DNA of 32,000 nt. Source: Opitutales bacterium (lineage in GTDB: Bacteria > Verrucomicrobiota > Verrucomicrobiia > Opitutales > PNEW01). The position numbers and the translations under genes are program-made. Under the pieces are notes generated by a model. That model worked only from the letters and a program-made list of their open reading frames with translations. It was not told the DNA's origin and searched no databases. The stretch lies in contig CBDCNV010000002.1 in the NCBI GenBank assembly GCA_965219535.1, positions 2,100,001 to 2,132,000 on the forward strand. Direction: 5' to 3'. Below, one piece after another: positions 6,744 through 31,024 of the stretch (positions within the stretch are counted from its first letter, which is position 1; each line of letters opens with the position of its first letter).

Positions 6744-8168
6744 CTAGACTCCTGAAGGTTCCAGTACGCCAAAGACCTCTCGAGCATCACTGATCTCACC
6801 GGTTACGGCTGCTGCCGCAACCATCAGCGGGCTCATTAAAATAGTTCTGCCCGTGGGACTCCCCTGGCGGCCTTTGAAATTACGGTTGCTGGAACTCGCG
6901 CATAATTGGTCGCCAACCAGTTTGTCAGGGTTCATTGCCAGACACATGGAACATCCGGCTCCCCGCCATTCGAATCCTGCTTTCGTAAAAATTTCGTCCA
7001 GCCCCATTTCTTCCGCGAGCTTAGCGACAATTTGCGATCCCGGGACGACAAGCGCCTTAACTTTGGGAGCGACATGATGCCCTTCAATATATTTGGCCGC
7101 CTCTTTCAAATCAATGATCCGTGCATTGGTGCACGAACCGATAAAAGCGACATCGATTTTTGTGCCTTTAATCGGCGAGTCAGGTGCGAACTTCATGTGT
7201 TCGAGTGCTTCTAAAACACTGTCTCTCTCATCGGATGGCACTTGATCGGGATCGGGTATATTTTCATCAATAAAAATTGCCTGGCCCGGATTTATGCCCC
7301 AGGTAACGGTGGGTGCTATTTCTTTCGCGCGGATTGTGACCACATCATCATAATCACAGTCCTCATCAGAGGCGAATGACTTCCAGTTTTCAACTGCATC
7401 GTCCCAAGCCGAACCTTTCGGTGCGTAAGGTCGTCCCTTGAGGTATTCGTAAGTCGTTGCATCCGGGATAACATAGCCCGCACGCGCACCACCCTCAATC
7501 GACATATTACAGACCGTCATACGTTCTTCCATCGAGAAGCGATCCAAGACTTCACCGCCGTATTCATAGGCAAAACCGGTTCCGCCATTTACTCCCAGAA
7601 CGCGGATAATGTGTAAGATAACATCTTTAGCATAAACCCCGGGGGCGAGCTCGCCATCTATATTAATACGGCGCACCTTGAGTTTGTTCAGGGCCATCGT
7701 CTGGGTGGCGAGAATGTCGCGAATTTGCGAAGTGCCGATGCCAAAGGCTATAGTACCAAAAGCTCCATGGGTTGATGTGTGAGAGTCCCCACAGGCAATC
7801 GTAGTTCCCGGTTGGGTTATACCCTGTTCCGGTCCGACAATATGCAAGATTCCCTGTTTTCCTGAATGGGTATCAAAAAAAGTAATGCCGGTATCTTTAC
7901 AGTTTTTACGCATCGCGTTGATCATCGCGTCAGCAAATTCATCAGAATAAGGCTCTTTATTCTCATCCGTGGGCACAATATGATCGACCGTGGCAAAAGT
8001 GCGTTCGGGATAACGGACTTTTAAGCCCAATTCATTCAGCATGCCGAATGCTTGCGGGCTTGTTACCTCGTGGACGAGATGGGTGCCAATAAACAGTTGT
8101 GTCTGCCCGTTCGACAGTTCGCGAACGGTGTGGGCCTCCCATACTTTTTCGAATAAATTCTTTCCCAT
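6744..8168 (-). CDS. leuC: 3-isopropylmalate dehydratase large subunit
   Basis: 474 aa. Aconitase-family Fe-S ligand motifs are present: [16 protein letters not shown] and [10 protein letters not shown]. Confidence 0.95.
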
Positions 8169-8293
8169 AATGCTTACTCAATCGTAAAATTGAATCAGTT
8201 AACTTAATAGGTTACACCCACCGCGCAACTACAAAGGCTTAGTTTAGGATATCATACACCTATTTCATTACATTTATGAACTGATTTCTTCAC

Positions 8294-9613
8294 TTAAGTT
8301 TCCGTTTCAGCTAAGAATTTTTTGATGCGGCACAAAACATTCTCTTTACCTAATACTTGCAGCATGGCGTAAAAGCCTGGTCCGACATTAGTTCCCGACA
8401 CTGCCAACCGGGTAGGGTGGATGTATTCTCCGCTACTTACTTTATGCGTCACAGTCAGACTTTCTACCATTTTTTCCAGGATTTCCTCTGAAAATTTATC
8501 TAAGGTTTCAATACTAGATAAAATCTCATTTAAGCGAGCAAGGGGATCTCCTTTCTTGAAGATTTTTTGTTTCGCTTTCTCGTTTATCGAATATTTATCG
8601 GTGAAAAAGTATGCACAGTATCCGGGTAATTCTTCAATTGAACGCACTTTCTCTCGACAGATCCTCAAAACGTCCTGAAGGAAATCTTCATCCACGTTTT
8701 CAGGGATGATCTTAGATTCATTCAAAACCGGGCGGCATAACCAGCTAAAGGTTTCGAGGGGAAGAGCACGTAGATAATCTGTATTAATGAATGAAAGTTT
8801 CTTCTCATCGAAACGCGCGTTGTTTTTATTTATCCCGGTGAGGTCGAAAAGTTGAATGATTTCATCGATCGGTAGAATCTCGCGGTCGTCTTTAGGCGAC
8901 CACCCGAGTAGACAGAGATAATTGCGCACCGCATCAGCGAGGAAATAACGCCGTTCGTATTCTTCAATAAGGGATCCTTGATCGCGTTTGCTCATTTTTC
9001 CCGGCCCCTGCTGTTTAAGCAAAAGCGGTATGTGAGCATACTGTGGCAACTCGGCCTTAAATGCTTTTATCAGCTCGGTGTGTTTGCTCGTATTCGACAG
9101 GTGATCTTCACCTCGAATCACATGAGTAATACCCATCGTGATATCATCCACCACATTGACAAAGTGAAATACAGGTGAGCCATTGGAACGGAAAATAACA
9201 AAATCCTTTTCTTCAGTTCTTTCAACACGACCACGCACCGCGTCTTCGATTACTTGGGGTTCCCCGGTAATCTTAAAGTAAATAGCGCCATCCTTTTCAT
9301 AGGCGCGATCAATCTTTTTAAGCTGCTCAAGATGGCTGCGATAAATTTCTGTGCGTTCACTCTGGTAATAGGGACCGTAGTCTCCACCGACTTCCGGTCC
9401 TTCATCCCAGTTGAGACCTAACCATTTCATGCCCTGAAAAAGGATTTGCTTTGCCTCTTCCGTATTGCGCTCCTTGTCCGTATCTTCGATCCGTAAGATA
9501 AATACACCTTCGGCATGACGTGCGTATAACCAGTTGAACAAAGCGGTACGTGCACTTCCAATATGGAAAAACCCAGTCGGACTGGGAGCAAACCTGACTC
9601 TCACTTGTGACAT
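8294..9613 (-). CDS. gltX: Glutamate--tRNA ligase
   Basis: Class I signatures are present: HIGS ([22 protein letters not shown]) and KMSKR. I place the start at the internal ATG (MSQVRVRF..., CAT at 9611-9613). The 21 codons upstream in the track ORF look non-native. Confidence 0.93.
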
Positions 9614-9723
9614 GATGTATATATCACTAAGTAATAATAAGTATGATAAGCAATAATCTTCGTCCTCGCCTACCACGATGTAGTCACGCCACTACGGCTA
9701 CGACGGAGCGTGTATATAAATTT

Positions 9724-10299
9724 GGAACTCAGGAACTCAGGAAAAGAATGTTGGCCACAGAAGGCACAAGAGACACTCCCAAAGAATAGCGAGATATTCC
9801 AAAAAAATTACAAGAAGGATTTTTACAGGAAGAGCGGGAAGAACGGGGAGACTGAACCGCAGAGGCGCCAGAGGTCACAGAGAAAAAGAAGAGTTGGCCA
9901 CAAAAAGCACAAAAAAGATTTAGAAAAGAAAAATTACGAAATACTATCAGGTGAAACACGTTGCTTAATCGCAATGGCATCCCACCCGCGTATGCGAGTG
10001 AGACTGATACGGATAAACCCTACCGCTTTTTTTAAATTTTGATTTAAAAAAACGCGTAGGGAATAGCCGTCGCTCAGCTATTGCTGAGCTATTGCGATTA
10101 AGCAACGTGTTTCACCTGCTCTATATAATGTTATTTTCGTAAGTAATTATTTTTATCCTCTATTTATTCGTGTGCATTCGTGTTTATTCGTGGTTAATTT
10201 ACTTTAATATCCAATTTTATCTCTTGTGCTTTTTGTGCCTTTTGTGGCTATATTTTCTCCGTGTCTCTGCGGTGAATCATTCCTGAGTTCTTGAGTTCC
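9724..10299. repeat. Large imperfect palindromic element of about 576 bp, with word-like terminal inverted repeats
   Basis: The ends are GGAACTCAGGAACTCAGGAA (9724-9743) and TTCCTGAGTTCTTGAGTTCC (10280-10299), which match at 19/20 as an inverted repeat. An inner perfect 28-bp inverted repeat, CAGGTGAAACACGTTGCTTAATCGCAAT (9948-9975) and its complement (10091-10118), is separated by 115 nt. Both arms also carry GCCACAAAAGGCACAAG-type words. Confidence 0.7.
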
Positions 10300-11074
10300 A
10301 TATTTTCTCAATTGAAACTTCCATTTTCTTCTCACAGAAGTCGGCCAGGTCTTGAGGAAATGGTGCTTCGAATTTAAGCTCAATCTCGGGATCCTCAATG
10401 ATCACTTGAGCGGCGTGAAGTGCCTGGCGATAATGGGGGAGATTTTGCTCCAACCGTTCTGTCCATCCCTTTTCAATAAATTCGAGATAGAGCGTGTCAT
10501 CAGGACCATAAATCTTATCACCAACGATGGTGTGGTTCATCCACTGAGCGTGAACGCGGATCTGGTGCTTGCGGCCCGTTGTCGGAATTATTTTAGCCAG
10601 GGTATAGCCACCTTCAGTGACAAGGGGGATAAATGTCGTCACTGCTTTTTGCGAAGTGCGTGAACGACGCACCGTCTGTTTGACATAAACTTTACTCGCA
10701 CCGTCGCGTGCCAGCTGCTTATTGACCGTTTGAGCTTCTGTCATTTCACCGTCGAGAATGGCGTAATATGTTTTTATAACTCTTCGTTGCTCGAAAGCCA
10801 TCTGGCATCGGCGAGCCCAGGCTTTATTTTTTGCGAGGATGATCACACCGCTGGTTTCACGATCCAGACGGCTCACTAAATGTAATGTTTCAAGTCCAGT
10901 ATATTCACGGCATGCGCCGACTAAACTGGATAAAGGGCCCTGTTTCGAGGGGTGACAGACAATCCAACCCGGTTTGTCGATTACAAGAAGATTTTCATCT
11001 TCACTTATGATCCATTTTTTTAAATCTGATAAATTGATTAAAGGAGGATCGGCAGAGAAATATTCCAAAGACAT
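10277..11074 (-). CDS. RluA-family pseudouridine synthase
   Basis: 265 aa with the catalytic motif HLVSRLDRETSGVIILAK (HRLD..TSG) and the KHQIRVH motif. The last 7 codons (WNSRTQE*) lie inside the terminal repeat of the palindromic element. Confidence 0.85.
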   Translation of the reverse strand: MSLEYFSADPPLINLSDLKKWIISEDENLLVIDKPGWIVCHPSKQGPLSSLVGACREYTGLETLHLVSRLDRETSGVIILAKNKAWARRCQMAFEQRRVIKTYYAILDGEMTEAQTVNKQLARDGASKVYVKQTVRRSRTSQKAVTTFIPLVTEGGYTLAKIIPTTGRKHQIRVHAQWMNHTIVGDKIYGPDDTLYLEFIEKGWTERLEQNLPHYRQALHAAQVIIEDPEIELKFEAPFPQDLADFCEKKMEVSIEKIWNSRTQE

Positions 11075-11106
11075 GGAGAGATAGTCAGGGTTAATAAGGG
11101 TGGGTC

Positions 11107-11937
11107 CTACTTATCTTTTTTGAATTGTTCCAGACGCGCTAGACGCAAGCCAATCGCTGCTATTTTTGTCACTATTAACTTCGGCAATTTTGATGAAAAG
11201 AATACAAGCAGTCGATTGTGCCAACCTGAAACAGTCAGCGATTTACCTTTAGCTAAAGCACAGAGTGCAGTCTCGACGACTTCTTCAGATGTTTGCCCCG
11301 GATAAGTGCTCATCGGTGATTCCGTGAAGCCGGCCCGCGTAAAAAAATTGGTTTCAGTGGGACCCGGGCATAAAACTAAGGTGCTTACGCCAGTCCCTTT
11401 TAAATCTTCATTCAAGGCGAGGCTCCAGTGCATGAGAAATGCTTTTGTTGCCGCATAGGTTGACATGAAAGGTAAGGGTTGAAACGCAGCAGTAGAGGCG
11501 ACATTGAGAATTACCCCACCTCTTTCGGTAAGCAGCGGCAATAGCCGAGCAGTCAAGTATACGGGGGCACAAACGTTGACCGACAGCATGTTCATTTGGG
11601 TTTCGCCATTTGGTTCAGGGAATTGACCGTAAGTGCCAAAGCCACTATTATTAATGAGCAGAATCTCTCCACGGCCTCCGTTTTCCGTGAGAATTTCTAT
11701 TAATTGTGTGCATTGTGAATTTAATTCGTCAGCGTTGCTGAAATCGCAGGGGAAATGGATAATTTCACAATTATCTCCAATTTCTCCGGGTTTCGAACGA
11801 GAAAGATTGCAATATAAGGCGTTGTCATTTAGGCTATTTATAGCTTTGAAGAAAGACTCCCCAATGCCCGAAGACCCCCCGGTTATGACGACTGCAGAAA
11901 ATCGGCTGAGGACAGTTTTTATTGATTTCTTACTCAC
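11107..11937 (-). CDS. Short-chain dehydrogenase/reductase (SDR) family oxidoreductase
   Basis: Cofactor motif VITGGSSGIG, plus NNSG and the catalytic YAATKAF (YxxxK). Confidence 0.85.
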   Translation of the reverse strand: MSKKSIKTVLSRFSAVVITGGSSGIGESFFKAINSLNDNALYCNLSRSKPGEIGDNCEIIHFPCDFSNADELNSQCTQLIEILTENGGRGEILLINNSGFGTYGQFPEPNGETQMNMLSVNVCAPVYLTARLLPLLTERGGVILNVASTAAFQPLPFMSTYAATKAFLMHWSLALNEDLKGTGVSTLVLCPGPTETNFFTRAGFTESPMSTYPGQTSEEVVETALCALAKGKSLTVSGWHNRLLVFFSSKLPKLIVTKIAAIGLRLARLEQFKKDK

Positions 11938-12000
11938 ACTGTTAATGGGCGGTTATAGACTGTATCTCATTAAATCTGAACGCTAAAGAAAGGAATATGC

Positions 12001-12375
12001 ATGAAAAATAACGACCATGAATTGATAATATCAGGTGTTCATTTGGAACTGACTCAAGCACTGAAAGATATCGTGTATGAGAAAATTGAAAAGCTTTTCC
12101 GTCATGAAGAGCGAATTATAAGAATCCGTGTTGAATTGGAATTCAATTCTACGGTAACAAAACAGAATCAGTTTATCGCTAAAGGACATATTGAGATTTA
12201 TGGTAAACCCATGGTCGTTTCTGAGGCTTCGGATGATATTTATAAGTCAATTGATCTAGCAGTGACTAAACTGGATCGCATACTGCGTCGGCGCTCGCGC
12301 TTGAAAAAAGTGAAACGTAAGCATCCGCATGAGATTGATATTCCAGCGGAAATCCCGAAAATCGAGCCAGCTTAA
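12001..12375 (+). CDS. hpf: Ribosome hibernation promoting factor (HPF/RaiA, short form)
   Basis: 124 aa. The sequence I.G.HLELTQALKDIVYEKIEKL...AKGHIEIYGKPMVVSEASDDIYKSIDLAVTKLDRILRR matches the sigma-54 modulation / S30EA family pattern. Confidence 0.85.
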   Translation: MKNNDHELIISGVHLELTQALKDIVYEKIEKLFRHEERIIRIRVELEFNSTVTKQNQFIAKGHIEIYGKPMVVSEASDDIYKSIDLAVTKLDRILRRRSRLKKVKRKHPHEIDIPAEIPKIEPA

Positions 12376-12398
12376 TCTTTGAATGAATTAATCAAAAA

Positions 12399-12433
12399 AG
12401 CCCAGGAGTTTATCCTCCCGGGCTTTTTGTTTG
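12399..12433 (+). terminator. Rho-independent terminator after hpf
   Basis: AGCCCAGGAG-TTTATC-CTCCCGGGCT forms a 10-bp stem with one mismatch. It is followed by TTTTGTTTG and sits 24 nt after the hpf stop. Confidence 0.6.
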
Positions 12434-12545
12434 TGAGAGTTGTCAAATGAAAATTAAATAGATTATGAAGAATGTGCTTTAACTTTTTCATCACGCTTAC
12501 AGAATGGAAAATTCAGTAAAATATTAATTAATAACCCCTTCACTC

Positions 12546-12941
12546 ATGGCTAAAAATTCAATTGTTTTTGGAATAATAATTATCGTTGTTAGTATCTCAT
12601 TTTATATCGGCACATACAGGGCCAGTATGACTGCTTTGATCCCCGGAATTATGGGGGTCGTAATGGTCATTTGCGGTTTGCTCGCACGCAAAGAAAATAT
12701 CCGCAAACACCTGATGCACGTATCAGCAGTCATTGCCTTAATCGGATTTATCGCTACAGCAGAAGGTATATTAAGATTGATCGGGATGCTGGACGGTGCA
12801 GAAGTCGAGCGTTCGATAGCATTTATTGAAATGGCGATCAGTTCTGTTATTTTTCTCATCTATGTTATCCTCTCCTTTCAATCCTTTCGCGAAGCGCGGA
12901 GGGAGAAAGTGGGGGGGAGAGTAGTGGAGAGTGAACAGTGA
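12546..12941 (+). CDS. Small hypothetical membrane protein (about 4 TM)
   Basis: 131 aa with four hydrophobic segments. I recognise no family. Its stop codon lies inside a GTGAACA heptamer array. Confidence 0.55.
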   Translation: MAKNSIVFGIIIIVVSISFYIGTYRASMTALIPGIMGVVMVICGLLARKENIRKHLMHVSAVIALIGFIATAEGILRLIGMLDGAEVERSIAFIEMAISSVIFLIYVILSFQSFREARREKVGGRVVESEQ

Positions 12942-12964
12942 ACAGTGAACAGTAAACAGTGAAC
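12930..12964. repeat. Heptanucleotide tandem repeat (AGTGAAC)x5
   Basis: The array reads AGTGAAC AGTGAAC AGTGAAC AGTAAAC AGTGAAC directly. It places TGA in all three + strand frames. Confidence 0.9.
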
Positions 12965-13012
12965 CGTCACAGGCGTTTCAAAGTGTTGAAAGTATGCTTG
13001 AATGCGTTCGAA

Positions 13013-13108
13013 TCCACTCTTGTCATTGCGAAGGAGGCGCAGCTGACTGTGGCAATCCAGGGGACTGTCAATAGATTACCGACATTCCCCTGGAGTGGAT
13101 GATGTCGC
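13013..13108. repeat. Modular palindromic intergenic repeat, copy A (CATTGCGAAGG / CCAGGGGA-hairpin family)
   Basis: TCCACTCTTGTCATTGCGAAGGAGGCGCAGC is shared almost exactly with copy C at 19303. The hairpin is CCAGGGGA (13057-13064) - 21 nt - TCCCCTGG (13086-13093). Confidence 0.7.
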
Positions 13109-13188
13109 CCCACTAAGGCTGGACATTAGAATATCCATCTTCTACTTGAAATTCGCGGGCACTTTCTACTAAATGGCCACTTTATGGA

Positions 13189-13265
13189 GCGCCGCTAGCT
13201 CAATTGGATAGAGCACCTGATTACGGATCAGGAGGTTGGGGGTTCGAGTCCCTCGCGGCGTGCCA
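13189..13265 (+). tRNA. tRNA-Arg (anticodon ACG)
   Basis: It folds as a cloverleaf by hand. The acceptor stem is GCGCCGC/GCGGCGT. The anticodon stem CCTGA/TCAGG carries the loop TTACGGA. The T arm is GGGGG-TTCGAGT-CCCTC, and CCA is encoded. Length is 77 nt. Confidence 0.9.
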
Positions 13266-13309
13266 TGGGTATCAATTACTTATAAAATTAAAAGTTAAGG
13301 AATAGCGCT

Positions 13310-14194
13310 ATGGCAATTGTAGAAATAACCCAGCTTGAGCCCCTCGTGGACAGGACAGATCTACTCAATCAACCGGAGGAATTGAGACGGATAGGGGAGG
13401 AAAGTGGATGCTTGTTTTTCGCCGGGTTGCTTTCCCCGAACAAGGTCAATAATGTCAGGGCTCAGATCCTTTCAGTTTGTGACAAGCACGGGTGGGTAAA
13501 GGAGGGAACAGATTACACGGAAGGTATAGCCAATCCGGAGGTACTTATCGTTGAAGGTAAAGATCCGAGGTGGATGGCTTTATACAATGATGTGCTGAAG
13601 ATTCGAGATTTTCATGATCTGGCTTTGGACGAAAACTTGAATCATGCGTTTGAGGTCCTCTTTGGTGAGTCGGTTCTACCTCACAGTCGGAATATTTGCC
13701 GCCTTGTTTTTCCAAACTCGGCCTTATACTCGACACCCCCTCATCAGGACAATTTCTATATTGGAGGATCTAAGGATACGTGGACGGCGTGGGTTCCTTG
13801 CGGTGATTGCCCGGAAACACTCGGCAGTCTGGCTGTTGCCAAAGGATCACATCGGCAAGGTTTGTTAGAAGCCCACAAAGCAGACGGTCCTGGAGAACAT
13901 CAGGTGGACGTGGAAAAGGATCAAGTCTGGGTAGGTGGAGACTATGCCTGTGGGGATGTGATCATTTTGCACAGCCTGACGATTCATCAAGGGAGAGATA
14001 ACCTGAGTCAGGATAAATTGCGTCTGTCTTGTGACTTTCGCTATCAACCGAAAAGCCATCCCGTCCGAGAAGATTCGCTGGAACCCCACATGAATTGGAT
14101 CACATGGGATGAGATCTATCAGGATTGGGACCCCACTGATCCAGTGAAGTATTATTGGAAGAATATGGATCTACAGATTGTTGAAAAAAAGTAG
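13310..14194 (+). CDS. Phytanoyl-CoA dioxygenase (PhyH) family Fe(II)/2-oxoglutarate oxygenase
   Basis: 294 aa with an HxD iron motif (PPHQDNFY), a distal His (HSLTIHQGRDN) and an Arg (LRLSCDFRY). There is no signal peptide. Confidence 0.8.
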   Translation: MAIVEITQLEPLVDRTDLLNQPEELRRIGEESGCLFFAGLLSPNKVNNVRAQILSVCDKHGWVKEGTDYTEGIANPEVLIVEGKDPRWMALYNDVLKIRDFHDLALDENLNHAFEVLFGESVLPHSRNICRLVFPNSALYSTPPHQDNFYIGGSKDTWTAWVPCGDCPETLGSLAVAKGSHRQGLLEAHKADGPGEHQVDVEKDQVWVGGDYACGDVIILHSLTIHQGRDNLSQDKLRLSCDFRYQPKSHPVREDSLEPHMNWITWDEIYQDWDPTDPVKYYWKNMDLQIVEKK

Positions 14195-14243
14195 GCGAAG
14201 CAGGTCACCAATCGCTTCCGAGTGCGAAGCCCGCCTGTCGTCC

Positions 14244-14430
14244 ATCTTGTCATTGCGCCTGTCGGCCATAGCCTTGGCGACGGCTGAAGGAGCAACGCGA
14301 CGCGGCTACCGAGCTTAGCGACATCTTCCACTCCAGGGGAATGTTTGTTGTATTATGTAGGTCCCTTGGTATTAGAATTAACTCTCAACCGATCGTCTCC
14401 ACGATTGCGGTATCCTCGCAATGACAAATC
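14244..14430. repeat. Modular palindromic intergenic repeat, copy B
   Basis: The ends are ATCTTGTCATTGCG ... CCTCGCAATGACAAATC (inverted). The internal module GCGGCTACCGAGCTTAGCGACATCTTCCACTCCAGGGGA is shared with copies C and D. Confidence 0.7.
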
Positions 14431-14680
14431 GAAAATTGCATCACTCTAACAATTGCCTAAAATGAAAAGCCCATTAAGTTTCTAGTATGAAGCGTGCGAA
14501 TTTAATAATCATAACCTTGCTCGTCGGCACTGCATTAGGAACTGAGAACGGTCAATTAACAGATTTAAAAGGGCGAGCGGAAAGAAATAGATGAGTAACC
14601 TGGCGAAAAAAAATCGCACGGCTTAATATTGTTACCTGACATAATTTGATAAAATCCGATAGGCACAAGAAACCAGGGCA

Positions 14681-15928
14681 ATGAATAAGTATAAAGCAGA
14701 AAATAAAAAGCGAGAGGCAGGATATAAATGGCTCGCGCGAATTTTATTACTCATTGCTTTTATTTATCACCTATCCTTAATCGGTTTATCTCCCTCATAT
14801 GGAAAAGCTATTTGGGAGGGGGTGGATCGAATCGTCGTGGTAGGGGATATTCATGGTGACTACGACCAGTTTATAAAGCTTCTCCGTTCAGCGAAGTTAA
14901 TAAATCATAAAAATAGGTGGACGGGTGGAGACACCCATCTTGTCCAGTTAGGGGATGTGCCAGACAGAGGACCTGATACGCTGAAAATAATTGAATTTCT
15001 TCAGAAACTGGAAAATCAGGCGAGAAGAACGAAAGGTTATGTTCACCTGCTTATTGGCAATCACGAAGCAATGAACGTTTACGGGGATTTATATTACGTA
15101 CACCCGGGTGAATTTAAGGCGTTCGCCAGACCTCAATCAAAGGATTTAAGGGAATTCTTTTATAAGAATACAATTGAAGCAATAAAAACCACCCTGCCCG
15201 AGGATGAATGGCCAAGCTTTGATGAAGATTTTAAATCGAACTGGGAGAAGGAGCATCCGCTTGGATTCATTGAGCATCGCTGGGGATGGGAGCCGGATGG
15301 CAGCATCGGAGAGTGGGTATGCGAACACGATGCAGTTCTAAAAATTAACGATTCTCTATTTATGCACGGGGGTATCGGACCCAAATTTGCTGACTGGTCT
15401 ATCGAAAAATTAAACGCGCAGATTCAGGCTGAATTAAAAGATAAACAGCTTAAAAAGAAGATACTGGCGGTAGACGAGGACGGCCCCCTCTGGTACCGCG
15501 GTCTTGCGCTTCACGGGGAGAGCGAAGAATCCACTCATCTTGAAAATCTCCTTAATAAGCATGACGTCAAACGCATAGTCATCGCTCATACTACCACCGA
15601 CGGGACCGTGATACCCCGTTTTAACGGCCGTGTCATACTGATTGATGTCGGCCTCTCTAAGGTTTACGGTGGACGGCAAGCCTGTCTCTTAATCGAGGGT
15701 GATGAAATATTCACGCTTCACCGCGGAAAGAAATTACCGCTTCCTACAGATTCCGGGGCCGGACTATTGAATTATTTGCGTCAGGCGGCGGCACTGGATC
15801 CCCATCCTTCACCGCTCTTAAAAAGGATTGCAGAATTGGAATTAAAACTCACAGAGCCGAGTCAGGACTCGGTTTCTCACCTCGACATTTCTCGCGAATC
15901 TGACGCCGCAGCTTATCCGGGTCATTAA
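14681..15928 (+). CDS. Membrane-anchored or secreted PPP-type metallophosphoesterase (Ser/Thr phosphatase-like)
   Basis: It has the motifs GDIHGD, GDVPDRGPD and GNHE in canonical order. The N-terminal hydrophobic segment WLARILLLIAFIYHLSLIGL suggests a signal anchor. The C-terminal tail of about 70 aa is low-complexity. Confidence 0.85.
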   Translation: MNKYKAENKKREAGYKWLARILLLIAFIYHLSLIGLSPSYGKAIWEGVDRIVVVGDIHGDYDQFIKLLRSAKLINHKNRWTGGDTHLVQLGDVPDRGPDTLKIIEFLQKLENQARRTKGYVHLLIGNHEAMNVYGDLYYVHPGEFKAFARPQSKDLREFFYKNTIEAIKTTLPEDEWPSFDEDFKSNWEKEHPLGFIEHRWGWEPDGSIGEWVCEHDAVLKINDSLFMHGGIGPKFADWSIEKLNAQIQAELKDKQLKKKILAVDEDGPLWYRGLALHGESEESTHLENLLNKHDVKRIVIAHTTTDGTVIPRFNGRVILIDVGLSKVYGGRQACLLIEGDEIFTLHRGKKLPLPTDSGAGLLNYLRQAAALDPHPSPLLKRIAELELKLTEPSQDSVSHLDISRESDAAAYPGH

Positions 15929-16985
15929 TGATTTCATAAAAGGACTTCAGGTAGGCGAGTGACTCTTTCCGTGTCAGGGAATTCAGTCCTATGGTATTTT
16001 TCCAGAGATCAAAAATGTCTTTTTTCTGCGCGTTAAAGAATTCAATATTTGCTTCCAGGATTCCGTCACTATGGCAGTACCCCCGGTAACGCCTTTGTTT
16101 AACGCTTCTCATTTTCAGTGATTTAGGCGGGCGGGCATAGGGCGCTGAGACTATGCCCGCATGGTCAAAATCATAGGGTATGGGCAAAAGCAGATTATCG
16201 TTTTCGGGATGGCGGATCAATCTCGCGTTATGACAGCATCGAGATCCTGGCTGGGCCATGAGGAGGGAGAAATCAAGATTGCCGATCATAAACTCATAAA
16301 TTTCTAAAAGATTTAAGGTAGTGGCTTCATACATATCTCTTGAGACTTTATTGATTCTCACCCTTTCACTACGATTTCGGTTTGCCATTTTCTTTTCATC
16401 TTCAATAAAAAAACCGTAACGGGTGATAGCTTTTCGCCGACCAACCGAATCGATATAAGTAATTTTTGCCAGTCTAGCCCTGAAGCTTCGGTCGGTCAGA
16501 AGGTTATAAGTGCGATACGCCAGATATTCCTTTAAAACATATTGTTCAAAAGCAGTTCCCGATTCACTACAATGGGTGACGAGTTTTAATTTATTCTGTC
16601 CCTCAAATACAGTCCCTTTAACATTAGGCTTTTCGAAATTAACCCAAATAGGTGGGAAATCACAAACTTCAATCATTCGTCGGGTATTCCCGCGCGTTTT
16701 CACGCGAATATTCAAAACGACACTTTCTTGACCTTCTCTTTCGTAAGTAAGGGACCCATCTAAATAGGGTATCTCCAGCTTCTCGTAACGGGTGGCACTG
16801 CCCCGTTGATTCAAAAGCGTTTTGAGTGGCGCTTCGACAGTGATATGAAGTAAGTCGTCAGACTCGAAAAGGGGAGCGCCCGCGTCCGCTAATTGTATTA
16901 ATGACGCGAAGAAAAACGCTGATAATAAAATGACACTGTTTATCTTCAGGCGAAAGTGACGATAAATTTTTTTTTGTGATAACAT
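15849..16985 (-). CDS. Secreted CotH-like (atypical kinase fold) family protein
   Basis: A signal peptide is present (VILLSAFFFASLIQLADA). RVKTRGNTRR...KLKLV...VLKEYLAYRTYN...GFFIEDEKK resembles the CotH N-lobe. MIGNLDFS, CCHNARL and IPYDFDHAG resemble the CotH catalytic and metal motifs. The family call is by eye and tentative. Confidence 0.6.
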   Translation of the reverse strand: MLSQKKIYRHFRLKINSVILLSAFFFASLIQLADAGAPLFESDDLLHITVEAPLKTLLNQRGSATRYEKLEIPYLDGSLTYEREGQESVVLNIRVKTRGNTRRMIEVCDFPPIWVNFEKPNVKGTVFEGQNKLKLVTHCSESGTAFEQYVLKEYLAYRTYNLLTDRSFRARLAKITYIDSVGRRKAITRYGFFIEDEKKMANRNRSERVRINKVSRDMYEATTLNLLEIYEFMIGNLDFSLLMAQPGSRCCHNARLIRHPENDNLLLPIPYDFDHAGIVSAPYARPPKSLKMRSVKQRRYRGYCHSDGILEANIEFFNAQKKDIFDLWKNTIGLNSLTRKESLAYLKSFYEIINDPDKLRRQIREKCRGEKPSPDSAL

Positions 16986-17130
16986 TTCCAGGGTTTTAAT
17001 AATTCAAAAATGAAATTCAATAGTCTATGTCTACAGTTATTATCGGATCGTAGTTGGGTCAAGTGACAATCGTCATCCCTCGTGTCAAAAAACCGGTTCC
17101 ATCTTGAAGTGTACTAAAAAGGCATCCCTA

Positions 17131-18462
17131 TTATGCGATAAAGGTCACTCCACCTGATGCTTCACGGCCTACCCAGACGGATCCGGTGGGATAAGTATGT
17201 GCACCGATAAATTCGTTGTGCATTTCAAGGCCCCAACCTGGTGACGTTGGTGCGATATAAGATCCATTCTCTACACGCACCGGGTTCACGAATGCATCCT
17301 CCTGAAGAAAGTTAAGATATTCCACGAACTGAATATCGGATCGGGCAGAAACAGCGATCTGGTCCCACAGGGCGTAGTGTTGGATCATGTTACAAAGGCC
17401 GATGCCACCACCATGAGGACAAATCGGAATGCCAAATTTAGCGGCCATGAGGATAACAGCCAGCACGTCGTTTACCCCGCCCATACGCGTGGCGTCGATT
17501 TGACAAAAAGCAATACTGCCGCTCGCAAGTAATTGCTTGAAGATAACAGGTGAGGGGACCTGCTCCCCCGTGGCTATACCGATCTTGTAGGGAGCTAGTG
17601 CCTCTGCGATTTTAGCGAAACCGAGGACCTCGTCACGCGCGGTAGGTTCCTCGATCCACAGGGGATGATAGGGCGCCAATTCTATCATGTGAGCAATGGC
17701 CTGGTCCACACTCCAGACCTGATTGGCGTCCAGCATTAAGTTAGCGCTGTCACCAATCACCTTGCGAATAAAGGTGAGGCGCTCGCGATCGTGTTGCAGG
17801 TCCCCGCCCACCTTCATTTTAAAGCTGTCAAAACCTACAGCTTTTACTTCGTTGATCGTTTCGATGATCTGGTCATCGGTTAATCCCAACCAACCTGCGG
17901 TGGAGTAAGCTTTAGGACCCCGCTCATTCATGAAATCTTCGCGCGCGGGGCAACTGTCTTTGTTGGCGCGTAGAATGTCGAGCGCTTCATCCGGTGTGAG
18001 AGCGTCTTTAAGATAGCGCCAGTCTATCGATTGGACGATTTTTTCCGGTGGGAGATCGACCAGTAGTTTCCACAACGGTTTATTTTCATGCTTGGCCCAT
18101 AAATCCCACATCGCATTTACAATGCTGCCGACCGCCATGCGGTAACAACCATCTGCGAGCCAACGGAGTTGGTGATGGTCGATGAATTTTTTATGAAATG
18201 CACCCGGATCATCGATAAATTCCTCCAAGGGGGTGTCGACGACTAACTGGGCGAGATCCTTGACACCATAACAGATCCAATCGGTTCCGGCTCCGACTGT
18301 GAAATTAACGGAAACCCCGCTGATATCGGAGTTTGTACGAATAGTCGTGATCGTCGCGGAATAATTCGGTTTCCTGTGAAACGGGTCCGAACCGAGGAGG
18401 GTATCAGAAGTGGGAACGCGAAGGTCGACGACGTCGACGGCAGTGAGATTCGTTGGAGACAT
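17131..18462 (-). CDS. fucD: L-fuconate dehydratase-like enolase-superfamily enzyme (mandelate racemase subgroup)
   Basis: 443 aa. The N-terminus VVDLRVPTSDTLLGSDPFHRKPNYSA resembles FucD. Enolase-superfamily motifs are present in order: KMKVGGD, MLDANQVW, WIEEPT, ATGEQ and CPHGGG. Confidence 0.8.
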   Translation of the reverse strand: MSPTNLTAVDVVDLRVPTSDTLLGSDPFHRKPNYSATITTIRTNSDISGVSVNFTVGAGTDWICYGVKDLAQLVVDTPLEEFIDDPGAFHKKFIDHHQLRWLADGCYRMAVGSIVNAMWDLWAKHENKPLWKLLVDLPPEKIVQSIDWRYLKDALTPDEALDILRANKDSCPAREDFMNERGPKAYSTAGWLGLTDDQIIETINEVKAVGFDSFKMKVGGDLQHDRERLTFIRKVIGDSANLMLDANQVWSVDQAIAHMIELAPYHPLWIEEPTARDEVLGFAKIAEALAPYKIGIATGEQVPSPVIFKQLLASGSIAFCQIDATRMGGVNDVLAVILMAAKFGIPICPHGGGIGLCNMIQHYALWDQIAVSARSDIQFVEYLNFLQEDAFVNPVRVENGSYIAPTSPGWGLEMHNEFIGAHTYPTGSVWVGREASGGVTFIA

Positions 18463-18534
18463 GGAGGAGAATAGTCGAAAGTCTAAGGTCGAAAGTCAAA
18501 AGCGATATGTATTTGTATGCGGGTATGCGTATAT

Positions 18535-19290
18535 GCGGTGATGAAGACTAAGATAAGTATAATTGTCATTAATTCCAAAAGCTTCGTCTTCGTCTGCCTC
18601 CTCGTCTACGTCCTCTTCTGCTTTATCGCTCCGATTTTTTTGTAAACTGGTGAAATATTTATATTAGGTAACAGTTCATTGATTCGAAAATATCCATTCG
18701 GACGAAGACGACGACTAAGACGATGACGAAGATGAAAAACGAATATTATTAATAATCATTTACCCCCAAAGCTTCGTCTTCGTCTGCCTCCTCGTCAGTG
18801 TCCTCTACTGCATTATAGCTATGATTTTCTGTAAACTGGTGAAATATTTATAATAGGTAGCTGTTCATTGATTCGAAATTATCCATTGAGACGAAGACGA
18901 TGACGAAGATGAAAAACGAATATTATAAACAATCATCTACCCCTAAAGCTTCGTCTTTGTCTGCCTCCTCGTCTACGTCCTCTTCTGCTTTATCGCTCCG
19001 ATTTTTTTGTAAACTGGTGAAGTATTTATAATAGGTAACAGTTCATTGATTCGAAAATATCCATTCGGACGAAGACGAAGACCAAGACGATGACGAAGAT
19101 GAAAAACGAATATTATTAATAATCATCTACCCCCAAAGCTTCGTCTTCGTCTGCCTCCTCGTCTACGTCCTCTTCTGCTTTATCGCTCCGATATTCTGTA
19201 AACTGGTTAAATATTTATGATAGGTAACTGTTCATTGATTCGAAATTATCCATTGAGACGAAGACTAAAGCGGTGACGAAAAATCGTTAG
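18535..19290. repeat. Tandem array of four units of about 176-191 bp (plus a degenerate leading partial unit), with A-B-A'-B' higher-order structure
   Basis: GCTTCGTCTT recurs at 18581, 18772, 18948 and 19138, giving spacings of 191, 176 and 190. Units 1 and 3 are near-identical (367 bp apart). Units 2 and 4 share their 3' halves (366 bp apart). Each unit carries complementary CTTCGTCTTCGTC and GACGAAGACGA arms. Confidence 0.9.
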
Positions 19291-19302
19291 GAATATCATG
19301 TA

Positions 19303-19475
19303 TCCACTCTTGTCATTGCGAAGGAGGCGCAGCCGACTGCGGCTACCGAACGTAGCGACATCTTCCATTCCAGGGGGCTGACAATATGTGTCCGACATTC
19401 CCCTGGATCGCCACGGCTGACAAGCCGCCTTCCCCCGTCGCACGAGGCTATGGAGGACAGGCGCGATGACAAAGG
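19303..19475. repeat. Modular palindromic intergenic repeat, copy C (most complete)
   Basis: Terminal inverted repeats are CTTGTCATTGCG ... CGCGATGACAAAG. The hairpin is CCAGGGGG-20 nt-TTCCCCTGG, and the module ATCGCCACGGCTGACAAGCC is shared with copy D. Confidence 0.75.
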
Positions 19476-19497
19476 AAATCAATCCGCAATTACATCA

Positions 19498-20457
19498 TTA
19501 ACCTTTTTGATCAATTTTCACATTAGGGTAGGGATCTTTTTCACCTCTCGTTGAACTTGACCCGAGACCGAGACCCCAATCAGAAGGTTCTGATCCGGCA
19601 CGCGCTTCTGCCCAGGCTTTGAGAGGGACCGAATCCTCATCCTCCGTAAACCAGTAACGCGATACGGGGTGAGCGACCGGATCTGAGCCCAACGGATTTC
19701 CCCCATCGCCCATGGCTCCCAGTAACTGCCGTCGTATTGGAGAGCTGCGCGCGATTAAATCCGGGTCCTGATTCATGTAACCACTGGGGCGCATCCATCG
19801 TGGTGTGTAGCTAATATAGAGAGCTTTGCGGGCGCTCTTGGAAAGATTTGGCGTAACCCCGTGGAGTAGAGTGGGGCGCCATAGCATAGCACTACCGGCC
19901 GGAACGCGCAATTCATAGATGTCTTTGGGTTTTAAGCGGGACTGCCAGTTTATCCGTTGTTCCTGCGTCCACTTGAAGCTACCGGGCACGAAAAGAATCG
20001 TGCTGTGGCCCGGTTCAGAATGGTCAGATACATACCATCCGACTTTGAAATCCAAGAGGGGCATGCGACCATCCAGGGTGGTGCCGGCGAACTGACTCTC
20101 GTAATCGAAATGCCAACCCAAGGATAAAATATTGGGATCGGTATTTCTAGGTTGAGGCATCTTATAGTCAAAAATACTATCACGATTTTGAATGTTCCAA
20201 CCGATAGCATCGACTACTAAGGGTAATATTTTGGGATGGTCGAGTAAGTCCAATATGGCTTCATGATAGGCCACCGAATTACGGAGACTGATACTGTCAT
20301 CGGGACTCAGCCCACGCACTTCACGCATTTGGTCTGCGACCTCGTCCATAGCTTTATCCAGGCGATCAGTTTCAGCGGGGGAGAGTATATTTTCTAATAC
20401 CGTAAATCCATTTTCATTAAGTTCATCCCTCTGTTTGTCAGTCATTGCAAACGTCAT
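19498..20457 (-). CDS. Phytanoyl-CoA dioxygenase (PhyH) family Fe(II)/2-oxoglutarate oxygenase
   Basis: 319 aa. The N-terminus LNENGFTVLENILSPAE is typical of PhyH. It has an HxD motif (GWHFDY) and a distal His (TLLHGVTPN). It starts 11 bp downstream of the FG-GAP gene. Confidence 0.8.
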   Translation of the reverse strand: MTFAMTDKQRDELNENGFTVLENILSPAETDRLDKAMDEVADQMREVRGLSPDDSISLRNSVAYHEAILDLLDHPKILPLVVDAIGWNIQNRDSIFDYKMPQPRNTDPNILSLGWHFDYESQFAGTTLDGRMPLLDFKVGWYVSDHSEPGHSTILFVPGSFKWTQEQRINWQSRLKPKDIYELRVPAGSAMLWRPTLLHGVTPNLSKSARKALYISYTPRWMRPSGYMNQDPDLIARSSPIRRQLLGAMGDGGNPLGSDPVAHPVSRYWFTEDEDSVPLKAWAEARAGSEPSDWGLGLGSSSTRGEKDPYPNVKIDQKG

Positions 20458-23446: not shown

Positions 23447-23582
23447 TTTGTCTTTGCGAAGGAGACGTAGTAGACTGCGGCTACCGAGCACAGCGACATC
23501 TTCCACTCCAGGGGACTGCCGGTCACGTTTGATATTCCCCTGGATCGCCACGGCTGCCAAGCAACCTCGCGATGACAAAGAG
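23447..23582. repeat. Modular palindromic intergenic repeat, copy D
   Basis: The ends are TTTGTCTTTGCGAAGG ... CCTCGCGATGACAAAGA. The internal sequence GCGGCTACCGAGCACAGCGACATCTTCCACTCCAGGGGA-19 nt-TTCCCCTGGATCGCCACGGCTGCCAAGC matches the other copies. Confidence 0.75.
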
Positions 23583-23622
23583 AATCAATCGAAAATCGAC
23601 AATCGGCAACCGAAAATTGAGA

Positions 23623-29954: not shown

Positions 29955-30944
29955 ATGTCTTACACCCTGGAGAAAGAAATAGCCGTGCAAGCGGTGCTGA
30001 AAGCCTGTAAATTATGCCAGAGCGTGCGCCGATCGATGATTTCGGACGAGGCGATGCTAAAAGAAGACAAATCACCCGTTACGATTGCAGATTTTGGATC
30101 CCAGGCACTCATCATAGATGAGCTGCATAAACATTTTCCCAAAGATCCGATAATCGCGGAAGAAGACGCTACAGAATTGCTCACATTAGAAAATACACCC
30201 GTTCGGGAAAGTGTGTACCAGCAAGTCCAACAAGTATCTCCCAGCTTAACGGAAGATGAAATAATTGACGCCATTCAACGAGGCAATTATTCCGGACAGG
30301 AAGTGGGGCGGCAGTGGGTGCTTGATCCCATTGACGGGACGAAAGGTTTTTTGCGCAATGGGCAATATGCAGTAGCGCTTGCGCTGATTGAGGATGGAAA
30401 AATAGTGCTGGGAATTCTTGGCTGTCCGAATCTCGCCATTGATTTTAATAATCCAGAAAGTTCGATCGGTTGCTTATACTTCGCGCTACGCGGTGAGGGT
30501 GTGATTTCACGGAGTTTAGAGGTCCCCAATGAATTATCAGTTAGTGTCTCTGAGATCAGCAATCCATCCGAGACTAAAGTCTGTGAATCCAGGGATTCGG
30601 GGCATTCCTCACACGGTAAAGCCGCACAGATTTCCGATCGTTTAGGTATCACAGCCACGCCAATTCGCATTGATAGTCAGTGTAAATATGCAGTCGTGGC
30701 ACGCGGTGATGCTTCAATCTATCTCAGGCTGCCCGCGAGTCGCGGGTATGAGGAAAAGATATGGGATCACGCCGCAGGTGTCATCATTATCGAAGAAGCG
30801 GGGGGGAGAGTTTCTGATGTAGAGGGTAGGCCGCTCGATTTTACAAGAGGCAATACTTTAAAGGGAAATAGAGGGGTCATAGCCACAAGTGCACCTATTT
30901 ATGATGAAGTGATTGCTGTCGTTCGAGAAATTATGGGCGGATAG
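29955..30944 (+). CDS. 3'(2'),5'-bisphosphate nucleotidase (HAL2/CysQ-type, inositol monophosphatase superfamily)
   Basis: 329 aa with KEDKSPVTIADFGSQ, IIAEED, WVLDPIDGTKGF and WDHAAG motifs. Confidence 0.85.
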   Translation: MSYTLEKEIAVQAVLKACKLCQSVRRSMISDEAMLKEDKSPVTIADFGSQALIIDELHKHFPKDPIIAEEDATELLTLENTPVRESVYQQVQQVSPSLTEDEIIDAIQRGNYSGQEVGRQWVLDPIDGTKGFLRNGQYAVALALIEDGKIVLGILGCPNLAIDFNNPESSIGCLYFALRGEGVISRSLEVPNELSVSVSEISNPSETKVCESRDSGHSSHGKAAQISDRLGITATPIRIDSQCKYAVVARGDASIYLRLPASRGYEEKIWDHAAGVIIIEEAGGRVSDVEGRPLDFTRGNTLKGNRGVIATSAPIYDEVIAVVREIMGG

Positions 30945-31024
30945 ACGGAAGGCGGGAAGGCCGGAGGACCGGAAAGCCGGAAGGCTGGAGAGCCGGAGGG
31001 CCGGAAGGGTGGAAGGTTGGAATT
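30945..31024. repeat. Purine-rich tandem repeat: about 5 copies of a 16-nt unit (8-nt sub-period CCGGAAGG)
   Basis: It reads ACGGAAGGCGGGAAGG CCGGAGGACCGGAAAG CCGGAAGGCTGGAGAG CCGGAGGGCCGGAAGG GTGGAAGGTTGGAATT and starts 1 nt after the stop codon of the nucleotidase gene. Confidence 0.85.

Follow-up and report, generated by a model that had tools for sequence, protein, structure and literature searches.

Introduction

Repetitive extragenic palindromic (REP) elements are defined as imperfect palindromes of 20–40 bp with an unpaired GTAG or CGTC tag (PMC3733652). Enterobacterial REPs and bacterial interspersed mosaic elements (BIMEs) consist of 20–40-bp palindromes and short linkers, with periods below ~100 bp (PMC3333891, PMC2817692). 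In Pseudomonas fluorescens SBW25, REPINs form ordered tandem clusters that include their flanks, the largest of which comprises four REPINs and one REP and exceeds 700 bp (PMC3116915). These SBW25 clusters are the closest precedent for the locus described here, a tandem array of four units and a partial unit in the 1,035-bp spacer between a PhyH-family dioxygenase gene and a fucD-like dehydratase gene. The array lies in a 32,000-nt stretch of DNA from an Opitutales bacterium (contig CBDCNV010000002.1, positions 2,100,001–2,132,000), hereafter referred to as the window; positions are those of the window unless another locus, designated by an L number, is named.

Tandem repetition in bacterial spacers takes several other forms. 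Mycobacterial interspersed repetitive units (MIRUs) and the variable-number tandem repeats VNTR-105 and VNTR-141 of Wolbachia are intergenic tandem repeats of tens to ~200 bp whose copy number differs between related genomes, and MIRU units carry small open reading frames (ORFs) coupled to the flanking genes. Tandem small RNA (sRNA) arrays, such as NsiR1 in Anabaena and LhrC1–5 in Listeria, are composed of head-to-tail units of 100–200 bp in one spacer, each with a hairpin. Type I toxin-antitoxin loci are typically tandemly duplicated. To our knowledge, small repeat elements have hardly been described for Opitutales.

An earlier note, made from the letters of the window and a list of its ORFs, had described the array and offered three candidate roles: a tandem set of small structured RNA genes, an amplified element resembling a MITE (a transposable element of miniature size with inverted repeats), or an iteron or operator array controlling fucD. 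We put the probability at roughly three in four that the array is a local tandem amplification of a small, non-coding, MITE/REPIN-like hairpin repeat dispersed in the intergenic DNA of this Opitutales lineage. Since the unit belongs to a repeat scattered through intergenic DNA, we regard it as ordinary repeat DNA and not as a new gene or switch.

Results

Layout of the array

Tandem Repeats Finder (TRF) returned one tandem array at 18578–19265, with a score of 1071 at a period of 190 (3.7 copies, 85% matches) and of 1250 at a period of 367 (1.9 copies, 94% matches). Four units of 177–190 bp with complementary arms and an A-B dimer structure occupy 18578–19290, with a partial unit besides, all assigned to the minus strand. 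Units 1 (18578–18767) and 3 (18945–19134) are of A type, 190 bp long and 97% identical in the unit alignment. Unit 2 (18768–18944, 177 bp) is of B type; its purine arm is shorter by 6 + 6 nt, its T-run by one T, and it has diagnostic bases in common with the single-copy allele of L095. Unit 4 (19135–19290) is an A/B mosaic with a B-like core, an A-like pyrimidine arm and a degenerate outer end, where the distal purine arm lies. The dimer of units 1 and 2 matched that of units 3 and 4 at 92.6% identity over 339 nt, gap-free. The partial unit, u0 (~18530–18577, minus strand), is homologous to the linker and a degenerate arm, and it is also found in the array-less loci L087 and L090 and in L095.

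On the plus strand, unit 1 reads as a pyrimidine arm, an AT-rich centre with the core, a purine arm and a 40-nt linker. A 26-nt marker of the pyrimidine arm, beginning with GCTTCGTCTT, occurs at 18581, 18771, 18948 and 19138, and the 25-nt core GTTCATTGATTCGAAA(A/T)TATCCATT starts at 18674, 18863, 19041 (19041–19065, plus strand) and 19230; each was found exactly four times, with none expected in shuffled sequence. The GGATATTT(T/G)CGAA part of the core, read on the reverse strand, is common to family members elsewhere. The pyrimidine arm CTTCGTCTTCGTCTGCCTCCTCGTCTACGTCC is located at 18582–18613 (plus strand), with further copies at 18772–18803, 18949–18980 and 19139–19170. Its purine partner GGACGAAGACGAAGACCAAGACGATGACGAAG lies at 19067–19098 (plus strand), with copies at 18700–18731 and 18889–18913 and a degenerate one at ~19256–19283. 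The -10-like hexamers of units 1 to 4 are TATATT, TATAAT, TATAAT and TATGAT, and a T7 run is present in units 1 and 3.

The edges of the array carry a direct repeat, GCGGTGA(T/C)GAA, whose right copy GCGGTGATGAA (18535–18545, plus strand) and left copy GCGGTGACGAA (19270–19280, plus strand) bound the four-unit block and are 735 bp apart, which is exactly four units. Toward fucD, the spacer ends in a tail (18463–18529, minus strand) of 7–8-nt micro-repeats, AGTCGAA in 4.3 copies and GTATGCGG in three, which is common to the L087, L090, L094 and L095 alleles.

Two independent long-read metagenome assemblies (ENA ERZ25067264 and ERZ25072670) agreed byte for byte over the complete 1,035-bp spacer, so the array is not an assembly artefact. 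One short-read contig stops inside unit 1.

Arms and predicted folding

The arms of the array are 32–36 nt long, 72–81% complementary, and separated by 40 nt across a unit junction and by 82–86 nt inside a unit. The hairpin across the junction was the strongest predicted structure on both strands (-25 to -48 kcal/mol), with z-scores of -3.6 to -6.2 on the plus strand and -2.5 to -5.8 on the minus strand relative to dinucleotide-shuffled controls. The 76-nt centre, where the -10-like box and the T-run lie and the core begins, was unstructured (z ~ +0.6 to +0.9). The arms are composed of hexamers of the (TCGTCT)n/(AGACGA)n type, and indels of 6 and 12 nt keep the hexamer period. The arm CTTCGTCTTCGTCTGCCTCCTCGTC contains CGTC repeatedly and no complementary GACG, and it therefore cannot fold on itself.

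Most of the layout given in the earlier note was reproduced, namely a real four-unit array, nearly identical units 1 and 3, a duplicated A-B dimer, the hexamers, the T7 runs and the 40-nt AT-rich linker, a partial unit near 18535, and arms that can pair both within a unit and across a junction. Its statement that the array is not a CRISPR locus agrees with our alignment, in which the segments between the arms are 84–97% conserved between units and do not represent unique spacers. Two points were amended. Three of its four marker positions agreed with ours, and the second marker starts at 18771 instead of 18772. The 1,035-bp gap does hold the four units and the partial unit, as described, but 19290–19480 is taken up by a separate dispersed element.

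Members of the family at other sites

The unit was searched by BLAST against clade DNA, and an nhmmer profile was run on 172 kb of clade DNA; the source genome was inspected over ~60 kb and each relative over ~9 kb. Besides the array, three further sites were found in the source genome, all in spacers and all with shorter or rearranged members, and a second locus was found in the relatives L091 and L093. The copies at these sites are exclusively intergenic. The profile matched at E-values of 1e-5 to 1e-23 and at these sites only. By an arithmetic estimate, chance alone would give ~0.002 occurrences of the 13-mer GACGAAGACGAAG in 60 kb.

Site 2 (L099 11201–11400) is flanked by an APH-like gene and, in convergent orientation, an xerC/D-like gene. 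There, a (CTGTTCA)x10 microsatellite is followed by two 100-bp tandem units of 89% identity, both of which end in GAGGACGA(G/A)GACGATGAGCCAGACGAAGACGAAGCTT and have one arm each; tandem duplication was thus seen at two of the four source-genome sites. Site 3 (L099 19958–20051), in a dciA/rpsO spacer, is a compact hairpin member of ~90 nt that starts ~15 nt after the stop codon of the dciA-like gene. At site 4 (L097 13271–13739), in a histidine-kinase/PATR spacer, the arms enclose ~390 nt that include a copy of the GC-rich family described below and a remnant of the palindrome seen in L094. The locus in L091/L093 (7676–8021) has two 28-nt arms of 89% complementarity around 290 nt of unrelated sequence. 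Inverted ends of the MITE type around a short non-coding interior were seen at L091 7676–8021, in the L094 spacer, at L097 13271–13739, in the window units and in L095.

In a multiple alignment, the short members share with the array unit the end of the 5' arm, GG.GA.A.TT(G/T)CGAA, TATAAA...AAAAG and the 3' arm. The form found in the array and in L095 has an extra middle segment of ~50 nt that is absent from the short members. Read in the direction of the flanking genes, the family consists of a pyrimidine-rich arm, (A)TCTTCGTC(A/T)TCGTC..., followed by GGATATTT(T/G)CGAA, an optional AT-rich middle of ~50 nt, TATAAA...AAAAG and a purine arm, GAGGACGA.GA.G.GGCAGACGAAGACGAAGCT. Across the family, arms are 28–36 nt long and 72–89% complementary, with hairpin z-scores of -2.5 to -6.2.

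Two kinds of small repeat were observed next to these members. Heptamer microsatellites of the (CTGTTCA)n/(AGTGAAC)n type, with up to 10 copies (window 12930–12964; L099 11083–11154 and 11384–11432; L091 8030–8058), adjoin members of the arm family or lie in spacers in which relatives have such members. A third palindromic element, GGTGGAGCGTGCTGTCCCTAGCACGC...GCGCTAGGGACAGCACGTTCCACC, with 34-nt arms of 82% complementarity, was found at L094 5073–5147, L091 7938–7975 and L097 13575–13660. At several loci it sits inside the pair of arms, so that the arm hairpins resemble hot spots at which other small elements insert.

The same spacer in related genomes

The 90%-identity cluster of the PhyH protein contained eight other variants, whose loci were compared with the window. 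Over nine related Opitutales loci, PhyH and fucD show 92–98% nucleotide identity, and the spacer between them is hypervariable, ranging from 118 to 1,035 bp. In L005 and L091–93 it measures 118 bp and has no element. L088/89 have a 191-bp spacer with the GC-rich element only, in inverted orientation, and L087 and L090 (283 and 298 bp) have the GC-rich element together with u0. The 321-bp spacer of L095 contains one full unit and u0, and the GC-rich element is absent. The 312-bp spacer of L094 shows both arms around a different interior with another palindrome. In the window, finally, the GC-rich element is combined with 4.3 units. The repeat is accordingly present in 0.3 copies (L087/L090), 1.3 copies (L095) or 4.3 copies (window).

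The L095 unit is 82–86% identical to the window units, with some diagnostic bases of B type and others of A type, and this single-copy allele has two direct arm copies ~190 bp apart, namely the 5' arm and a degenerate extra arm after the linker. The junction in L090 and L087, ...CCTAACGATTTTTCATCACCGCATATACGC..., is a fusion of the two edges of the window array with a single hybrid copy of the direct repeat, and the window and L090 differ by exactly 735 bp, i.e., four units. As read from these alleles, the locus is a tandem repeat of variable copy number that gains and loses whole units. Spacer alleles are not distributed in line with the gene tree, a mismatch that is consistent with recombination between strains. 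A model in which the whole 1,002 bp represents a single insertion relative to the reference genome OY829953.1 was replaced by a composite, stepwise history in view of the wider allele set.

Gene content near fucD differs as well, as seen when ~9700–14650 of the window is compared with L005 7790–7880, L091 6410–7353 and L090 6717–7927. In L005, a 460-aa ORF almost directly follows the Metallophos gene and matches, in length and GTG start, the class-I (Glu/Gln) tRNA-synthetase gene of the window (8294–9676). If this candidate is the orthologue, L005 would be without the ~5 kb at ~9700–14650 of the window. L091 is without the 378-aa and Metallophos genes, and downstream of fucD L090 carries a transposase of the IS3 type (HTH_Tnp_1 + rve).

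The GC-rich element and other small repeats

The segment 19302–19472 (plus strand) is a different dispersed element, outside the array, with inverted ends TTGTCATTGCG / CGCGATGACAA and a GC content of 58% compared with 45% for the window. Two repeat families thus make up the 1-kb spacer. Further copies of the GC-rich family were found at ~13012–13110, 14247–14430 and 23448–23580 of the window, at L097 13293–13558 and in relatives. The element was predicted to form a closed multi-hairpin fold (plus strand, z = -3.6). It holds a small GTAG-tagged stem-loop, GGTAGCCGCAGTCGGCTGCG (minus strand, 19328–19346), reminiscent of GTAG-type REPs. The copies at 19302–19472 and 23448–23580 are each located directly 3' of an upstream minus-strand gene, after its stop codon.

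Heptads of the A(A/G)TCGAA type recur in spacers (window 18473–18502 and 23587–23617; L005 3962–3988). Two of these sites are directly upstream of fucD, in two allele types, and one adjoins the GC-rich copy at 23448–23580. Between the genes for the tRNA synthetase and a pseudouridine synthase, a 600-bp spacer (9628–10300) contains many short tandem repeats with periods of 8–11 nt, and at 9948–10118 a palindrome-like, self-complementary stretch of 170 nt (66% over 184 nt) that had no Rfam match. A tandem repeat of 8/16/32 nt of the CGGAAGGC type (TRF score 100) was found at 30938–31022, in a 628-bp spacer downstream of an inositol-monophosphatase gene.

Flanking genes and setting

The PhyH-family dioxygenase gene (19498–20457) and the fucD-like gene of an enolase-superfamily dehydratase (17131–18462), whose product we take to be L-fuconate dehydratase, are both on the minus strand. 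The closest reference genome is the Opitutales (Verrucomicrobiota) metagenome-assembled genome (MAG) OY829953.1, with a fucD of 96% identity; the next-best fucD relatives, at ~70%, are mostly from Poribacteria, which suggests a sponge microbiome as the setting. The genes of the window comprise housekeeping functions and polysaccharide use, and no integrase, transposase or reverse transcriptase was found among them.

Several other classes were considered and rejected. A retron or a diversity-generating retroelement was dismissed, as there is no reverse transcriptase in the window. Integron attC sites were dismissed, given that neither R''/R' ends (RYYYAAC/GTTRRRY) nor an integrase beside the array were seen; the sole tyrosine recombinase observed is the xerC/D-like gene at another locus. 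An alternative genetic code was also discarded, the flanking genes being read normally in table 11.

L097 and L098, two assemblies of the same strain, disagree on gene lengths (13781–17200 and 7092–8843, respectively). The PATR protein is 1136 aa long in one and split into 301 + 61 + 714 aa in the other, and the lengths called for an SSF transporter are 583 and 481 aa. At coverages of 5x and 9x, these differences are probably long-read indel errors, and the ORF boundaries of the window should be read cautiously.

Discussion

The amplified MITE-like element, one of the candidate roles named in the earlier note, is the one that our results favour. Its arms recur as inverted ends of 28–32 nt around variable interiors, shorter members are found in other spacers, and copy number differs stepwise at the same locus. 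What was observed is essentially the outcome that the earlier note had set against its own functional proposals, i.e., scattered MITE-like copies and a local amplification of selfish repeat DNA. We would file the unit as a new family of dispersed hairpin repeats that form tandem clusters, a bacterial minisatellite, and not as a REP sensu stricto.

A plausible history can be outlined from the alleles. The first duplication would have occurred by slippage or by unequal homologous recombination between direct arm copies ~190 bp apart, as they are present in the L095-like form. The copies could then have diverged into A and B types, or one of them may have been imported by recombination with an L095-like allele, before the A-B dimer was duplicated (92.6% identity). 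In other lineages, deletions between arms would have removed units and given rise to the 0.3-copy alleles. The long imperfect palindromes probably promote this instability.

Several observations weigh against this interpretation. The 24-nt core of the long form was seen only at the PhyH-fucD locus, so that the long form could have gained a locus-specific role. Conservation of the 45-nt core block is good when the window is compared with L095. The L095 contig is a short-read assembly in which a longer array could have collapsed, and the identity of the array in two samples gives no sign of ongoing copy-number change. Because the inspection covered ~60 kb of the source genome and ~9 kb per relative, any copy number for the whole genome is extrapolated. 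No target-site duplication common to the flanks was seen on inspection of L091, L094, L095 and L099, where the exact ends of the element are uncertain, and neither Y1_Tnp nor any other transposase was found among the genes of the ~60 kb of source genome. Mobility is thus deduced from dispersal alone.

Wider searches returned little. An exact pattern of the 24-nt core had no match in 185,579 reference genomes or in viral contigs, and only two chance matches of 21–30 nt in JGI metagenomes. The arm pattern likewise had no match in viral contigs. In a blastn comparison of the 1-kb block with plasmids and phages, only (GACGAA)n tracts of 36–46 nt in acidic, low-complexity coding sequence were retrieved.

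In a read-through RNA from PhyH to fucD there would be four hairpins, with energies of -30 to -48 kcal/mol, each followed by GCUUU. By analogy with REP elements, such hairpins may influence 3' end stability or termination, and no sign of a selected function was observed. A stronger version of this idea holds that the array is an RNA module under selection that acts in cis on the PhyH-fucD transcript; it would stabilise or terminate PhyH from the 3' untranslated region (3'-UTR), or serve fucD as a 5'-UTR or an insulator, and the number of copies would tune the expression of fucD. It is compatible with an origin as a repeat element, and we consider it unlikely. All three source-genome members that could be oriented share the same polarity to the upstream gene and lie directly 3' of a stop codon or between genes, but such agreement would arise by chance with a probability of 0.25. 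GCUUU(U) tails (UUUUUU in L094) come after the stable hairpins, but no terminator-like site was found in the array by a consensus scan; the sole terminator-like site falls in the fucD coding region, and scan counts were not above those of shuffles. The conservation of the core between the window and L095 would fit such a module, as would a preprint that reports REP elements as context-dependent regulators in 3'-UTRs (bioRxiv 10.64898/2026.03.23.713779). Against it, close relatives keep PhyH and fucD with the 118-bp, element-free spacer, and the differences between units break predicted pairs with no compensation.

A somewhat bolder proposal, which we regard as a long shot, starts from the long form (arms and 45-nt core), which was seen in three branches of the clade and nowhere but in the PhyH-fucD spacer. 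This form might have become a domesticated RNA or DNA module of variable copy number that sets fucD expression in probably sponge-associated symbionts; or the hexamer-built arms might represent a new, transposase-independent way for hairpin repeats to spread in Verrucomicrobiota.

It is very unlikely, in our estimation, that each unit is an independent plus-strand gene for a small structured RNA, consisting of a promoter of the TATAAT type, a core left single-stranded, a long hairpin and a tail rich in U; small structured RNA genes were among the roles that the earlier note had suggested. The distance from the TATAAT-like hexamer to TGTAAA is fixed at 13 nt in all units and kept in L095, where 8 of the 13 spacer bases differ, but a hexamer spacing of 13–14 nt is too short for sigma-70, and a consensus scan found no promoter-like site in the TATAAT region of the units. 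The only promoter-like site in the spacer lies elsewhere on the minus strand (18906–18878), and here too the count did not exceed that of shuffles. After the hairpin across the junction (z down to -6) comes UCUUCUGCUUUAU...U7, which would suit such a gene, but near-identical units degrade the -10 hexamer (TATATT, TATGAT) and the T7 run (to TTTTC or TATTC), and the segment with both features is missing from the short family members. A transcript from the single-copy L095 allele would be without a downstream T-run or partner arm, having only a degenerate partner across the junction. The Rfam search that the earlier note had proposed matched no family at gathering or permissive thresholds, with only miRNA-like hairpin noise below the former. 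The covariation analysis that it had also proposed (RNAalifold, five homologous units) gave no compensatory change in 35 predicted pairs of the within-unit pairing and a covariation penalty; differences between units mostly break predicted pairs. An across-junction alignment to which the short site-3 member was added gave a spoiled, uninformative result.

Small peptides encoded by the units are still less credible. Candidates would be a leader-type peptide rich in Ser, read from the gene strand (MIINNIRFSSSSSSWSSSSSEWIFSNQ), or small hydrophobic peptides resembling type I toxins, for instance MKTKISIIVINSKSFVFVCLLVYVLFCFIAPIFL (18541–18645, plus strand). Units 3 and 2 and L095 do have an ATG-started ORF (27, 23 and 34 aa) that stops at one shared TGA in the core, with GGGGG upstream of it in the array; hydrophobic frames are present on both strands, and tandem duplication would be typical of type I toxin-antitoxin loci. 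However, the Ser-rich frame meets an in-frame TAG in unit 1, unit 4 carries a frame shift, L094 is read in a different frame, and the hydrophobic frames have no start codon at three of four junctions, the exception being u0/u1. As the arms are (TCGTCT)n/(AGACGA)n, the runs of Ser, Asp/Glu and Val/Phe follow automatically, and the 6- and 12-nt indels track the hexamer period and not a coding constraint. No ORF in the array exceeds 43 aa, every frame is frequently stopped, and no conserved small ORF was found. No gene was called in the array in any assembly, and its six-frame peptides had no match among 5.8 billion protein clusters.

Iterons or operators for a regulator controlling fucD, the remaining proposal of the earlier note, can practically be set aside: a block of 25–45 nt is indeed repeated four times at regular spacing upstream of fucD, but members of the family adjoin unrelated genes (APH/xerC-like, dciA/rpsO, histidine kinase/PATR), the fucD orthologues of the closest genomes are without the block, and no transcription-factor gene adjoins the array in the window.

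If the array is a local amplification of a dispersed hairpin repeat, this study adds a previously undescribed repeat family, and a second, GC-rich one, to the uncultured Opitutales, and it reveals no new gene, RNA class or regulatory system. The allelic series of 0.3, 1.3 and 4.3 copies with nested insertions illustrates how such tandem clusters grow and shrink. Arrays of this sort break short-read assemblies, and they could serve as strain markers.

Compared with known systems, the array resembles those of NsiR1 and LhrC1–5 in its head-to-tail hairpin units within a single spacer, but it differs from them in having no supported promoter or terminator per unit and no covariation, and members elsewhere are without the putative promoter segment. 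Repeats of type I toxin-antitoxin systems (Ldr/Sib-like) are distinguished by the missing start codons in three of four junctions and by the differing frames of homologues here. As in minisatellites and VNTRs, copy number at the same locus varies among related genomes; unlike MIRUs, the unit has no conserved ORF and also belongs to a dispersed hairpin family. Like REP/BIME clusters, regularly spaced inverted repeats are found in spacers at the 3' ends of genes, whereas the period of 177–190 bp, the conserved AT-rich centre and the missing REP-defining palindrome set the array apart. The arms are not palindromic themselves, have no unpaired GTAG tag, and are built from hexamers of the (TCGTCT)n type.

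With bacterial MITEs (PMC3184786), the family has in common that it is short (90–400 bp), non-coding and intergenic, with terminal inverted repeats of 28–32 nt, and that its members share their ends, differ in their interiors and hold nested small elements. No target-site duplication was recognisable and no autonomous parent with the same ends was identified in the DNA inspected, and the tandem amplification of element plus flank is atypical of MITEs. REPINs differ in their host, SBW25 being a proteobacterium and the host here a Verrucomicrobiota (Opitutales) MAG. In systems with REP-associated tyrosine transposases (RAYTs), a Y1 transposase gene is flanked by the repeats; none was seen among the genes of the ~60 kb of source genome inspected. 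Like the REPINs of SBW25 (Bertels & Rainey, 2011; PMC3116915), the element is a dispersed extragenic repeat in which two inverted copies form a hairpin of ~100 nt. As in REPIN clusters, hairpin and flank are repeated together in ordered tandem (4.3 units in the window; 2 x 100 bp with 89% identity at site 2), and the largest SBW25 cluster, with four REPINs and an extra REP in more than 700 bp, is closely paralleled here by four hairpin units and a partial arm in ~735 bp.

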